Shown here: piece after piece, positions 22,901-61,436 of the stretch | Layout of the letters: every line of letters starts with the position of its first letter | Position numbering within the stretch: position 1 is the stretch's first letter | From: Escherichia coli | Lineage (GTDB): Bacteria > Pseudomonadota > Gammaproteobacteria > Enterobacterales > Enterobacteriaceae | Length of the DNA: 64,000 nucleotides | Assembly: GCF_044324785.1 (NCBI RefSeq) | Contig: NZ_CP172127.1 | Strand: one strand, 5' to 3' | Made by a program: the position numbers and the translations under genes | The notes under the pieces: model-generated | Told to the model about the DNA's origin: nothing | Database searches by the model: none | Seen by the model: only the letters and a program-made list of their open reading frames with translations

Positions 22901-22981
22901 AAAAAAACCTGCTGGTGAGGCAGGTTCTTTTATTTACTACAGTGACGCTAACTTGCTGATTGTGCAACATTTCGTACCAAC
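22901..22981 (-). ncRNA. orzO: OrzO-like antitoxin sRNA, copy 1 (~81 nt, boundaries inferred)
   Basis: Minus-strand TATAAT (22993-22988) 17 bp from palindromic TTGCAA (23011-23016); intrinsic terminator on minus strand (stem cctgc/gcagg 22908-22924 followed by U7 at 22907-22901); 5' 18 nt (22964-22981) complementary to zor 5'UTR 23132-23149 with one G-U. Confidence 0.5.
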
Positions 22982-23508: not shown

Positions 23509-23589
23509 AAAAAAACCTGCTGGTGAGGCAGGTTCTTTTATTTACTACTTTGATGTTAAGTTACTGATAGTGCAACATGGCATCTCAAC
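23509..23589 (-). ncRNA. OrzP/OrzO-like antitoxin sRNA, copy 2 (boundaries inferred)
   Basis: Same architecture shifted by 608 bp; 5' pairing region differs from copy 1 at several positions and matches its own cis toxin UTR better. Confidence 0.45.
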
Positions 23590-42747: not shown

Positions 42748-42844
42748 TTTATTAACGCGATTGTAAAACTGCGGTTTTTACTCGTTTACAACGCGTGCGC
42801 TGGACATTACCATCCTCCTCTGCGATTTATCATCGCAACCAAAC

Positions 42845-42969
42845 GACTCGGGGTGCCCTTCTGCGTGAAGGCTGAGAAATACCCGTATCACCTGATCTGG
42901 ATAATGCCAGCGTAGGGAAGTCACGGACCACCAGGTCATTGCTTCTTCACGTTATGGCAGGAGCAAACT
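42845..42969 (+). promoter_or_regulatory. TPP (THI-box) riboswitch in thiM leader
   Basis: ggggtgcccttctgcgtgaaggctgagaaatacccgtatcacctgatctggataatgccagcgtagggaagtc matches the classic thiM aptamer including CUGAGA. Confidence 0.9.
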
Positions 42970-57582: not shown

Positions 57583-57659
57583 GTATTGTGCAAAACAGAT
57601 CATTCACCAATGGTCCCCCTTCGTTTACACTAGCCACAATTGAATATGGGTAAATGACG

Positions 57660-58433
57660 ATGAATTCATTCGAGCGAAGGAATAAGATCATCCAATTAGT
57701 GAATGAACAGGGAACCGTGCTTGTTCAGGATCTGGCGGGAGTATTTGCTGCCTCGGAAGCGACAATCCGTGCCGATTTGCGCTTTCTCGAACAAAAAGGC
57801 GTGGTTACGCGCTTTCATGGCGGTGCGGCGAAAATAATGTCCGGTAATAGTGAAACCGAGACCCAGGAAGTCGGGTTTAAAGAGCGATTTCAGCTCGCCA
57901 GCGCGCCGAAAAACAGAATAGCGCAGGCGGCAGTCAAAATGATCCACGAAGGGATGACCGTTATTCTCGACAGCGGAAGTACGACAATGCTTATCGCCGA
58001 AGGATTAATGACCGCCAAAAATATCACGGTGATTACCAACAGTCTCCCGGCGGCGTTTGCCCTTTCCGAAAATAAAGACATTACTCTGGTCGTCTGTGGT
58101 GGCACGGTCCGCCATAAAACGCGCTCGATGCATGGTTCCATTGCCGAGCGTTCATTGCAGGATATTAATGCCGATTTAATGTTTGTCGGTGCTGATGGTA
58201 TTGATGCGGTTAATGGTATTACGACCTTTAATGAAGGTTATTCTATTAGCGGTGCGATGGTCACAGCCGCTAATAAAGTGATTGCCGTTCTCGATTCATC
58301 GAAATTTAACCGTCGCGGTTTTAATCAGGTACTGCCAATCGAAAAAATTGACATTATTATTACCGATGATGCTGTGTCAGAGGTGGATAAACTGGCATTG
58401 CAGAAGACACGGGTAAAATTAATTACGGTGTAG
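57660..58433 (+). CDS. gatR: DeoR-family repressor of the gat operon, uninterrupted
   Basis: 257 aa from MNSFERRNKIIQLVNEQGTVLVQDLAGVFAASEATIRADLRFLEQKG (DeoR HTH) with C-terminal sugar-phosphate-binding domain. Confidence 0.85.
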   Translation: MNSFERRNKIIQLVNEQGTVLVQDLAGVFAASEATIRADLRFLEQKGVVTRFHGGAAKIMSGNSETETQEVGFKERFQLASAPKNRIAQAAVKMIHEGMTVILDSGSTTMLIAEGLMTAKNITVITNSLPAAFALSENKDITLVVCGGTVRHKTRSMHGSIAERSLQDINADLMFVGADGIDAVNGITTFNEGYSISGAMVTAANKVIAVLDSSKFNRRGFNQVLPIEKIDIIITDDAVSEVDKLALQKTRVKLITV

Positions 58434-58444
58434 TATTGTTCTGT

Positions 58445-58478
58445 ATGCCGGATAAGGTGTTTACACCGCATCCGGCAT
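58445..58478. repeat. REP element
   Basis: gccggataaggtgtttacaccgcatccggca, canonical REP-like palindrome. Confidence 0.65.
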
Positions 58479-58514
58479 TACGGATTCTCCCTGGTTCAAG
58501 AGAGAATAGTTTGA

Positions 58515-59414
58515 TTAACGCAATAATGGACAATCTGGTGGTAATCGACAACGCAACGCCGCCGGAAGTATTTCAATATGAAAGTTTTGTCCGCTCAACG
58601 GTTCGCCATCAAGATTAAAAGTGATTTCGTGTGGGGCTTGTATATCAAACCACGACGAAGCGCCTTCGATAATATTCGGGTTATCTTCGTCAGATTTTAA
58701 GGTTGATACGAGAGCCGGAAGAATTTCATCGCCGGTAAAAATGCGCAGTTGCAGCAAGCCATCGTTAATTAACGCGTTCGGGCACAATTGTTGACCGCCA
58801 CCGGCCTGACGCCCGTTACCAATACCAATGACCAGGGCGTCACCTTGCCAGTGAAAGTTTTCACCGCGGATCTCACAACGGTCCGGTTGCAGAGTATCCA
58901 TGCGCATTAAGCCATGAATGATGTAAGAGACGCCACCCAGCGCGGCTTTTAATTTTTCCGGCGTTTCTGTGGTAATACGCGTCCCAAACCCGCCTGTCGC
59001 CATATTAATAAAACAGGTTTGTTTGTTGACCTGCGCCATATCTATCGCAATGGCGTTACCGGCAATTGCCAGTTTCAGCGCCTTATCCAGTGCCTCAGGA
59101 ATCCCTACACTGGTGGCAAAATCATTGGCGGTTCCTAATGGTAAAATTCCCAGCGCGGGTATGTCATCCCCCTCACACTGAATCAACGCCGTAGAAACTT
59201 CATTAATGGTGCCATCGCCACCACCGGCAATCACCGTTGCGACGCCCAACTTCCGGGCCTCCTCTACATATCGTGCGGCATCGCCTTTCTCCCAGGTGAC
59301 CCGCACATGGATCGTCATTCCTTCCTCACGCAACAGCATAATTGCTTCGCGCAAGGGTAGATTGTCAGTACTTTTGCCATTAAGAATCAGTAAGCTGGCG
59401 GGAAATTCTGCCAT
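58515..59414 (-). CDS. yegS: Lipid kinase (diacylglycerol kinase catalytic-domain family)
   Basis: 299 aa; GGDGT motif ([13 protein letters not shown]). Confidence 0.9.
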
Positions 59415-59828
59415 GATCGTATGTGCCTTTATGATTGGTCTGTAGATAGTGTAGAGCAGAAAAGAAAAGGTGGAGTCAGAACAGGATGAAAGTCGGAGGA
59501 TAAAAAGTCAGTTCAAGTATGGAGGATTCAGTGGTTACCACCAGGAGCTTGCAATGGGGACAGTGAATGTTAACGGTAGCCACCGGTAAATTTCAAAAAA
59601 GAGCATATACCTAATATTCAATTAAACAGTGGCATCTTCACTATCTTATTCTAAATATATTAAAGCCCTCATGGGGGTACCTGGGCAGGGCTTCATGTTT
59701 GTAATTCCTACTTATGTAGGAAATGTTGTACAGAACATTTATTATAATCCTATTCAATTATAATAATCATGCCGTTATTATATTTAAACACCAGAGCGTG
59801 TCGTTGGTATTTAATGGGGGAAGGTAAG

Positions 59829-60146
59829 ATGAAAAAGATAGCTGCTATATCATTAATTAGTGTTTTTCTTATGTCTGGGTGTGCTGTACATAATGATGAG
59901 ACAAGTATCGGTAAATTTGGTCTTGCATATAAAAGTAATATTCAGCGTAAACTCGATAACCAATACTACACCGAAGCCGAAGCTTCTTTAGCCAGGGGCA
60001 GAATATCTGGTGCAGAAAATATAGTAAAAAATGATGCAGCCCATTTCTGTGTTACTCAGGGCAAAAAAATGCAGATAGTTGACCTGAAGACAGAAGGTGC
60101 AGGATTACATGGCGTCGCTCGTCTGACATTCAAATGTGGAGAGTGA
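59829..60146 (+). CDS. yegR: Small lipoprotein-like protein of unknown function
   Basis: 105 aa from MKKIAAISLISVFLMSGC (lipobox); ATG at 59829 after GGGGGAAGG. Confidence 0.75.
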   Translation: MKKIAAISLISVFLMSGCAVHNDETSIGKFGLAYKSNIQRKLDNQYYTEAEASLARGRISGAENIVKNDAAHFCVTQGKKMQIVDLKTEGAGLHGVARLTFKCGE

Positions 60147-60316
60147 GAATATTTTTTGGTAAGCGTCAAACATGCGCGTTCTGGCTGTGCGTAACCGGAA
60201 CCTGTGCGAGCACGATGCCGTTACGTGAAAGGCATCGTGCTATGAAGGGAGATTCTATCGATGTGGTCAATGGAAGACGGTCACCTGGGATCAATCCGTC
60301 TCTATGGTTTATGTAT

Positions 60317-60343
60317 AAAAAATAAGCCCGTGTAAGGGAGATT
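60317..60343. other. Candidate P2-type attachment-site core (attL) at chromosome-prophage junction
   Basis: aaaaaataagcccgtgtaagggagatt, 80 bp beyond the 3' end of the integrase gene; matches my recollection of the 27-bp P2 att core. Confidence 0.5.
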
Positions 60344-60422
60344 TAGGGTGTCACCAGTAGGGGCTTTCAACGGTACAATGCGGGTTTGAGCGGCATAAAT
60401 TACCACTGAAAGCCCTTAAACG

Positions 60423-61436
60423 TTACTCTACTGTGGACACTGTGTGGACACTCTCGGCTTCAGTACCACCTCTTAGCGGATTAAGAGAAATGGCGTCCTG
60501 AAGGTACTCTGGCGCAAAATGAGCGTAAACCATAGTTTGCTCAATCCGCGTGTGACCTAGTATCCGTTGTAGCGTGATAATACTTCCTCCATTAATCATG
60601 AAATGAGTGGCAAAGCTGTGCCTTAGTGCATGTGTGGCTTGCCCCGTTGGCAAATCCGGTTTTATTGCTTTCATTGTTCGTCTGAAGCGAGGGTAATCAG
60701 CATCAGGGAATAAAAAACCTCGTTTGTTATCCGCGATCATTTTGGCAACAGCCTCTGAGATCGGGACGGTGCGTGGTTTGTTTGTTTTCGTTTTAACAAA
60801 CGTGACGCGGTTATGGATGATATTTTCTGCTTTCAAACGAGCTGCTTCTCCCCAACGTGCTCCTGTACTCAGGCAAAGAATCGCAATCTTTTTATTGTCG
60901 CCGTCAAGTGCTGCAAGCAGTAAGGCAATTTCTTCCTGTGTGAGATAGCCTGTTTCTGGTTTTTCCTCCTTAAGCCTCTTTGTCCCTCTGATAGGGTGCT
61001 CACCAAAGAATAACTCCGCTTCAATCAGGGCTGTAAACATGCCGCTAATACATGTTAAATCACGATTGATACTCGAAGGTTTAATACCCTGACTTCTTCG
61101 GGTGGCGCAGTACTGGCTGATAAGGGATTTCGTGATTTGAAATGCGCATGGGTCATTCGTTATTTTTGTGAAGATTTCAATTTTTCCAAGATTAGATTTC
61201 CCATGCTCTTCGTGTTTACCCTTTAAATCCCACCAGATCTGTGTCAGTTCCGACAGACGTCGTTTGTCTGTTGGTTTTGATAGCCATTCTTTATTGTGGT
61301 GGTTGTACAACGTGTATTTTTCGAAAGCGACAGCTTCGCTTTTCTTATCAAACTTCCTACGGATGCGTTTTCCGTTACGTCCAGTAGGGCGGATGTCCAC
61401 TTCATATCGACCATCATCGAGTTTTTTGATTGCCAT
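60423..61436 (-). CDS. int: P2-type tyrosine integrase
   Basis: 337 aa; C-terminal catalytic region with R...HxLRH...Y (HALRHSFATHFMINGGSIITLQRILGHTRIEQTMVYAHF). Confidence 0.9.
   Translation of the reverse strand: MAIKKLDDGRYEVDIRPTGRNGKRIRRKFDKKSEAVAFEKYTLYNHHNKEWLSKPTDKRRLSELTQIWWDLKGKHEEHGKSNLGKIEIFTKITNDPCAFQITKSLISQYCATRRSQGIKPSSINRDLTCISGMFTALIEAELFFGEHPIRGTKRLKEEKPETGYLTQEEIALLLAALDGDNKKIAILCLSTGARWGEAARLKAENIIHNRVTFVKTKTNKPRTVPISEAVAKMIADNKRGFLFPDADYPRFRRTMKAIKPDLPTGQATHALRHSFATHFMINGGSIITLQRILGHTRIEQTMVYAHFAPEYLQDAISLNPLRGGTEAESVHTVSTVE

Follow-up and report, generated by a model that had tools for sequence, protein, structure and literature searches.

The described systems closest to the yegS–yegR intergenic region are the promoters of the EvgS/EvgA regulon (ydeP, safA-ydeO, yfdX, frc and emrKY/evgAS), promoters of the sigma-S type, and horizontally acquired AT-rich genes silenced by H-NS and counter-silenced with the help of an activator. 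EvgA is said to bind the motif TTCYTACA-NN-TGTARGAA, reportedly described by Masuda and Church in 2003. We checked this consensus empirically on 27 kb of MG1655 around evgAS and ydeP. With two mismatches or fewer, the pattern occurred there in only five intergenic regions, upstream of emrK/evgA, frc, yfdX, safA and ydeP, and the genes beside these matches are all members of the EvgA regulon. In promoters of the sigma-S type, the –10 element is CTACACT, with C at position –13; such promoters combine a CTAcacT –10 with the lack of a –35.

Here, we analyzed the interval between yegS and yegR in a 64,000-nt stretch of E. coli DNA, referred to as the window. We give a probability of roughly 85% to the following reading: the interval is a divergent regulatory region composed of two parts of different age, an ancestral yegS promoter and an Escherichia-specific, EvgA-controlled part that belongs to yegR.

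The gap between yegS and yegR

The left border of the gap is yegS (58515–59414, – strand), which encodes a lipid kinase of 299 aa and was identified from the ORF list, the RefSeq annotation of matching genomes, and Pfam matches of homologues (DAGK_cat and YegS_C). On the right is yegR (59829–60146, + strand), listed among the ORFs and named 'protein YegR' in RefSeq. Its 105-aa product has a signal peptide and a lipobox (LMSGC), and the family search gave weak lipoprotein-signal matches only. Because yegS ends at 59414 and yegR begins at 59829 in the ORF list, the gap comprises exactly 59415–59828, or 414 bp. Its GC content is 37.9%, and that of the segment 59701–59828 is 31.2%, compared to 50.1% for the whole window. 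Both the borders and the composition agree with the first-pass annotation, which had described an AT-rich divergent gap of 414 bp.

The gap was found in 5423 of 5426 complete E. coli genomes. The allele carried by the window is rare, with identity of at least 99% in just 9 of the 5424 matching records; 5246 records fall in the 90–95% band. Differences between alleles are concentrated almost wholly in 59541–59700.

The RefSeq records of K-12 AB1157, strain N3 and MG1655 (NC_000913.3) leave the gap without any annotated feature. The curated MG1655 record lists the nearby sRNA cyaR, and no ncRNA between yegS and yegR. The earlier statement that the gap has no assigned feature is true of genome annotation only: in the literature, a yegS transcription start site (TSS), an RpoD SELEX peak carrying an H-NS flag, and binding of EvgA have been reported. 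The same first-pass annotation had also raised the possibility of divergent promoters, and this is supported by the yegS TSS at 59441, the RpoD SELEX peak, the conserved putative EvgA box, and the EvgA binding stated in a review. The gap is an ordinary divergent promoter region, previously described, with no novel element.

Several other features of the window were recorded along the way. Beyond yegS, an ORF of 259 aa at 57654–58433, which we take to be gatR, is assigned to the DeoR/GlpR family in matching RefSeq genomes; it is intact here, and the K-12 copy is split by IS3E. Between this presumed gatR and yegS, positions 58446–58481 gave a sub-threshold match to the Rfam family naRNA4 (36.1 bits versus a gathering score of 59.5, E = 3e-4), a suspected REP-type repeat. 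Rfam matches above the gathering score elsewhere in the window were a Peptidase-S11 RNA (2490–2570), a TPP riboswitch (42839–42935) and two OrzO-P antitoxin RNAs on the – strand (22901–22974 and 23509–23582).

The yegS side and its ancestral promoter block

Kim et al. 2012 (PMC3415461, Table S1) report a single TSS for yegS, at NC_000913.2 2166709, supported by 4 reads in one dataset and giving a 5′ UTR of 27 nt. The 51-nt upstream sequence listed there matches 59441–59491 of the window (– strand) with one mismatch, which places the TSS at 59441 and the 5′ UTR at 59415–59441 (–). Read relative to this start, the yegS promoter has the –10 element C-TACACT at 59454–59448 (–), with the hexamer at –12 to –7 and the C at –13, and no good –35. 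The element conforms to CTAYRCT, with C at –13, and ends 6–7 nt upstream of the mapped TSS, as is typical of sigma-S-type –10 elements. In alignments, TACACT is invariant across Escherichia, Salmonella and Citrobacter. Moreover, yegS appears in a table of RpoS-controlled genes of strain EDL933 (Dong & Schellhorn 2009, PMC2907692). From the –10 sequence and this one microarray list, we infer that the yegS promoter may depend on sigma-S.

To what extent is this side of the gap shared with other genera? The yegS loci of Salmonella enterica, Citrobacter koseri and C. amalonaticus were retrieved via YegS homologues. Directly upstream of yegS, both Citrobacter loci have a Peptidase_U32 gene that we take to be yegQ, and yegR is absent between the two genes. 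Homology between the window and the sequences upstream of yegS in Citrobacter and Salmonella was limited to ∼60 bp, 59440–59499, with the form TTTCATCCTGTTCTGAC...TTTCTGCT(C/A)TACACT. This block (– strand), delimited by the multi-genus alignment and by local alignment with the yegQ-yegS spacer of C. koseri, contains the invariant sequence CCTGTTCTGAC. Adjacency of yegQ and yegS is likewise described for K. pneumoniae by Kim et al. 2012 (PMC3415461). Because the homology is confined to 59440–59499, we regard this block alone as ancestral, and the other ∼330 bp, together with yegR, as specific to Escherichia. At the yegS-side boundary of the Escherichia-specific segment, a degenerate version of either the cyaR terminator or the P2 att core was considered and rejected, because local alignment scored 15, below the mean of 17.7 for shuffled sequences.

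Another promoter-like sequence on the – strand, TTGAAA-18-TAACAT, lies at 59596–59567, and strains differ there only at positions 3 and 4 of the –10 (TAACAT, TAGTAT or TAATAT). The segment 59587–59622 stands out from the sequence around it by higher conservation, which extends to a divergent Escherichia (L005, ∼80% identical). Together, these sequence features are weak hints of a second, upstream promoter facing yegS, and nothing more.

The variable spacer and its hairpin

Next to the ancestral block, alignments define an Escherichia-specific spacer (59500–59700), of which 59541–59700 is hypervariable and contains a 9-bp indel as well as a ∼68-bp insertion in strain N96. That insertion (L019 ∼1560–1640, aligned to window ∼59549) falls in the variable core; the yegR of N96 is divergent and is annotated merely as a hypothetical protein. 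Among 10 strains, pairwise diversity was 0.165 for 59624–59700 and 0.087 for 59541–59623, versus 0.013 for yegS and 0.032 for yegR; since the strains were picked by a 'spread' ranking on this locus, the absolute values are inflated, and the contrast with the flanks, drawn from the same strains, stands.

The only structural clue pointed out in the gap beforehand, a weak hairpin at about 59671–59701, does exist, as AAGCCC...GGGCTT, but its true position is 59663–59693, and it belongs to a rare allele. Only 7 genomes out of 5426 contain its exact 36-mer. The folding energy of the hairpin on the + strand, –15.2 kcal/mol, corresponds to z = –1.30 and is equalled by 23 of 200 shuffled sequences, so its stability is no more than expected by chance; on the – strand, z = –2.42. 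Minimum free energy structures at the site vary from strain to strain, and this stem is missing from the consensus that RNAalifold computed for 10 alleles (total –7.67 kcal/mol, covariation term +0.28). The terminator scan returned 0 sites in the region. Of the hallmarks of a terminator, namely a stable GC stem, a short loop and a direct U-run, the + strand lacks the U-run, and the – strand has the interrupted sequence UUUAAUAUAUUU and a 13-nt loop region. The GC-rich hairpin in the middle of the gap is unconstrained spacer without sign of function. There is a lesson here, in that the hairpin visible to the eye can be the least constrained part of an intergenic region.

We weighed several ways of giving this segment a role. 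The broadest, which we consider improbable, starts from the GC-rich, quasi-palindromic core itself (about 59624–59700), whose diversity is ∼12 times that of the flanking genes. The core might act as a strain-variable terminator or insulator on the – strand, might be where a short divergent transcript started at a bidirectional, AT-rich yegR promoter has its 3′ end, or might be a template-switch mutational hotspot that tunes the cross-talk of the EvgA-driven yegR promoter with yegS.

More specifically, the – strand could encode a small RNA of ∼100 nt, with a promoter overlapping that of yegR and an end at the hairpin (59693–59663) followed by UUUAAUAUAUUU. The AT-rich stretch 59743–59781 does yield promoter-like matches on the – strand as well, and the region contains TTTAAA-17-TATTAT (59788–59760) and ACGACA-16-TATAAT (59804–59777), the former predicted by Shimada 2014 (PMC3946193) as a promoter facing yegS. 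Read on the – strand, the hairpin (z = –2.4) is followed by a U/A-rich run, and some GC-rich hairpin is kept at this place in most strains. However, promoter-like matches are not enriched, with 5 found versus 2.7 ± 1.7 expected, and variability is highest in the putative terminator, whose structure changes between strains and shows no covariation. Rfam at the gathering threshold gave nothing in the gap when the whole window was searched, and a permissive search of 58300–60500 gave only chance-level matches there (caiA, E = 5.6; U6, E = 5.5). Thus, the gap holds no Rfam or curated MG1655 ncRNA entry, no terminator from the scan, no conserved structure, and no second TSS for yegS in Kim 2012 (PMC3415461). 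The supplements of Adams 2021 and of SMRT-Cappable-seq name neither yegS nor yegR. The possible small RNA of the first-pass annotation is therefore unsupported: conservation within the gap is lowest at the hairpin that served as its clue, and the look at TSS data that had been suggested as a check goes against it, the yegS TSS being the only one listed for yegS and yegR in Kim 2012 (PMC3415461). We find such an RNA very unlikely.

The hairpin could instead be an insulator, that is, an intrinsic terminator on the – strand that protects yegS against transcription, antisense or bidirectional, originating in the AT-rich yegR promoter. Its orientation fits, in that the A-rich run upstream on the + strand would be a U-rich tail on the – strand, and every E. 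coli allele retains a GC island amid AT-rich sequence. Against this, the hairpin did not pass the terminator scan, the U-tract is interrupted, and the stem pairing shows no compensatory changes; furthermore, the hairpin is not recognisable in L005 and is disrupted in N96. This reading, too, we hold to be highly doubtful.

The yegR side and its putative EvgA box

The segment 59700–59828, beside yegR, is well conserved in the alignments of 11 E. coli strains and L005. It contains an 18-bp inverted repeat, TTCCTACTTATGTAGGAA, at 59705–59722, singled out by motif match, conservation and position as a putative EvgA box and proposed activator site of yegR. The repeat is the sole match to TTCYTACA-NN-TGTARGAA in the 64 kb of the window, with one mismatch, where 0 matches are expected by chance. 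From its end to the yegR ATG is 106 nt, within the range of other EvgA targets (97–251 nt), and the site is intergenic, as theirs are. Of 5426 complete E. coli genomes, 5035 share an unchanged 32-mer with the box at its centre, and the arms of the box are invariant in the alignment of 11 E. coli strains. Pairwise diversity is 0 inside the box versus 0.165 in 59624–59700, indicative of purifying selection. Even in L005 the palindrome is kept, as TTCCTACAAACGTAGGAA, with changes at the innermost base of each arm and in the 2-bp spacer. The inverted repeat also folds far better than shuffled sequences (z = –5.1, with 0 of 200 as good).

Published data point the same way. EvgA 'strongly binds' the yegR promoter according to a review (PMC8147483), and induction of yegR goes together with that of ydeO, yfdX and frc (PMC5811628). 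We also note an expression correlation of 0.49 between yegR and yfdE. Taken together, these data suggest that 59705–59722 is an EvgA box and that yegR is the EvgA-regulated member; binding is stated by the review, and the EvgA dependence of yegR is the probable consequence.

Half-sites of NarL/FixJ-family regulators resemble one another, so the repeat could in principle be the site of another member of that family, such as RcsB. Alternatively, it could belong to a long yegR leader and act there as an RNA hairpin, with a stem of 7 bp. We consider either reading extremely unlikely. The repeat matches the full 18-bp EvgA arrangement, the same that marks the five known EvgA-target promoters, and yegR is named as an EvgA-bound promoter in the review (PMC8147483). 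As for a leader hairpin, the repeat is probably not transcribed on the + strand, because the –10-like elements lie downstream of it.

The chance that the gap encodes an unannotated small protein is close to negligible: several ORFs of 20–44 aa occur, two of them intact in 10 of 11 strains (59421–59489, +; 59535–59621, –), but, in keeping with the earlier remark that no ORF was convincing, none of at least 20 aa is intact in all 11 E. coli strains or matches a Pfam or NCBIfam family. Stop codons or frameshifts interrupt each of them in one strain or more. The best-kept one runs across the conserved yegS promoter on the other strand and is disrupted in N96 by a 2-nt deletion that L005 shares; the other starts with TTG and shows many amino-acid changes, and MG1655 has no small-protein annotation there.

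Returning to the EvgA box, the candidate core promoter of yegR lies downstream of it (59743–59781, +). Three –10-like hexamers can be read from the sequence: TATAAT at 59743–59748, TATAAT at 59759–59764 and TATTAT at 59776–59781. The box would be centred at about –41.5, –57.5 or –74.5, depending on which hexamer serves. The second TATAAT lies 37–42 nt past the end of the box, the same offset as that of TATATT after the ydeP box. Which –10 serves yegR, and by which class of activation, we infer. This candidate region is conserved, with a diversity of 0.028 on the same inflated scale. In the study of Shimada et al. 2014 (PMC3946193), the yegR/yegS spacer has an RpoD-holoenzyme SELEX peak and an H-NS flag; Kim 2012 (PMC3415461, Table S1) assigns no TSS to yegR. 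The yegR promoter predicted by Shimada (PMC3946193), TAAACA-18-TATATT, fits MG1655 and was not adopted for the window, because a 9-bp insertion in the window breaks its spacing.

Just upstream of the ATG at 59829 is the yegR ribosome-binding site, GGGGAAGGT (59817–59825, +), read from the sequence. Within this region, TAATGGGG..GAA is invariant in 12 of 12 aligned sequences. An in-frame ATG at 59769 would lengthen yegR by 20 codons (59769–59828). This extension has no stop or frameshift in 10 of 11 strains, and its ATG is present in 9 of 11. It is probably unused, because the strong ribosome-binding site sits at the annotated yegR start.

Beyond Escherichia, YegR homologues with 82–84% amino-acid identity were found in Klebsiella sp. 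(L007 3001–3309), Cedecea sp. (L008 3001–3309) and an Enterobacteriaceae MAG (L009 677–985). These share only the coding sequence and not the upstream region, and yegS is not adjacent. Because the DNA homology is limited to the CDS and the neighbours differ, yegR behaves like a small mobile lipoprotein cassette. A contig of 385 bp labelled Xanthobacter autotrophicus (L006 1–385) matches E. coli yegR, together with the sequence upstream of it, at 97% identity and probably reflects assembly contamination.

On the far side of yegR, an ORF of 337 aa (60423–61436, –) is presumably a P2-like integrase, recognised by its length and sequence. Given the position of this ORF immediately downstream of yegR, the site (window 60147–61436 and beyond) appears to hold a P2-like prophage. 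In K-12, all that is left there is the ogrK/yegZ remnant (PR-X), and in strain N3 the site is empty. Positions 60258–60343, which show 78% similarity to the MG1655 sequence that separates cyaR from ogrK, are probably the att core.

In the explanation we propose, the ∼85 bp beside yegS (59415–59499) would be the ancestral yegS promoter and leader, a weak promoter with no good –35, the element C-TACACT, and a start at 59441. The other ∼330 bp, AT-rich, would have entered with yegR in the Escherichia lineage, with the EvgA box (59705–59722) as their functional core. Under mild acid, the EvgS kinase would phosphorylate EvgA. A dimer of EvgA would then bind 59705–59722 and recruit RNA polymerase to a TATAAT-like element 20–60 bp downstream. 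The polymerase so recruited would overcome silencing by H-NS, and yegR would be transcribed.

The value of this reading lies mainly in annotation hygiene, in that a gap left empty by RefSeq contains a regulatory site documented for the acid-resistance network of EvgS/EvgA, along with a mapped start of yegS. Annotating the EvgA box and the yegS TSS would keep future scans from calling the interval unexplained. The locus is also a small, clean example in which a lineage-specific gene, yegR, came with a regulator-specific promoter beside an older, conserved one.

How does the region compare with the known systems? Next to sigma-S-type promoters, yegS has the same C-TACACT, correctly placed with respect to the TSS, and stands on a list of RpoS-dependent genes. 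It differs in that RpoD holoenzyme binds in the spacer (Shimada 2014, PMC3946193); its dependence on sigma-S is a putative one. The yegR segment resembles H-NS-silenced acquired genes in its GC content of 31–38%, its restriction to one lineage and the small size of the gene; its spacer carries an H-NS flag (Shimada 2014, PMC3946193), and homologous CDSs occur elsewhere in other genera. Occupancy by H-NS and counter-silencing by EvgA would probably apply at yegR. The likeness is closest to the EvgS/EvgA regulon promoters (ydeP, safA-ydeO, yfdX, frc and emrKY/evgAS). The yegR promoter has the same 18-bp repeat, within their range of 0–2 mismatches, the same intergenic placement 97–251 nt before the start codon, and likewise an AT-rich promoter with a poor –35. 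Nothing essential differs: the left arm of the yegR repeat ends in T, not A, and the window strain has a rare allele of the upstream spacer.
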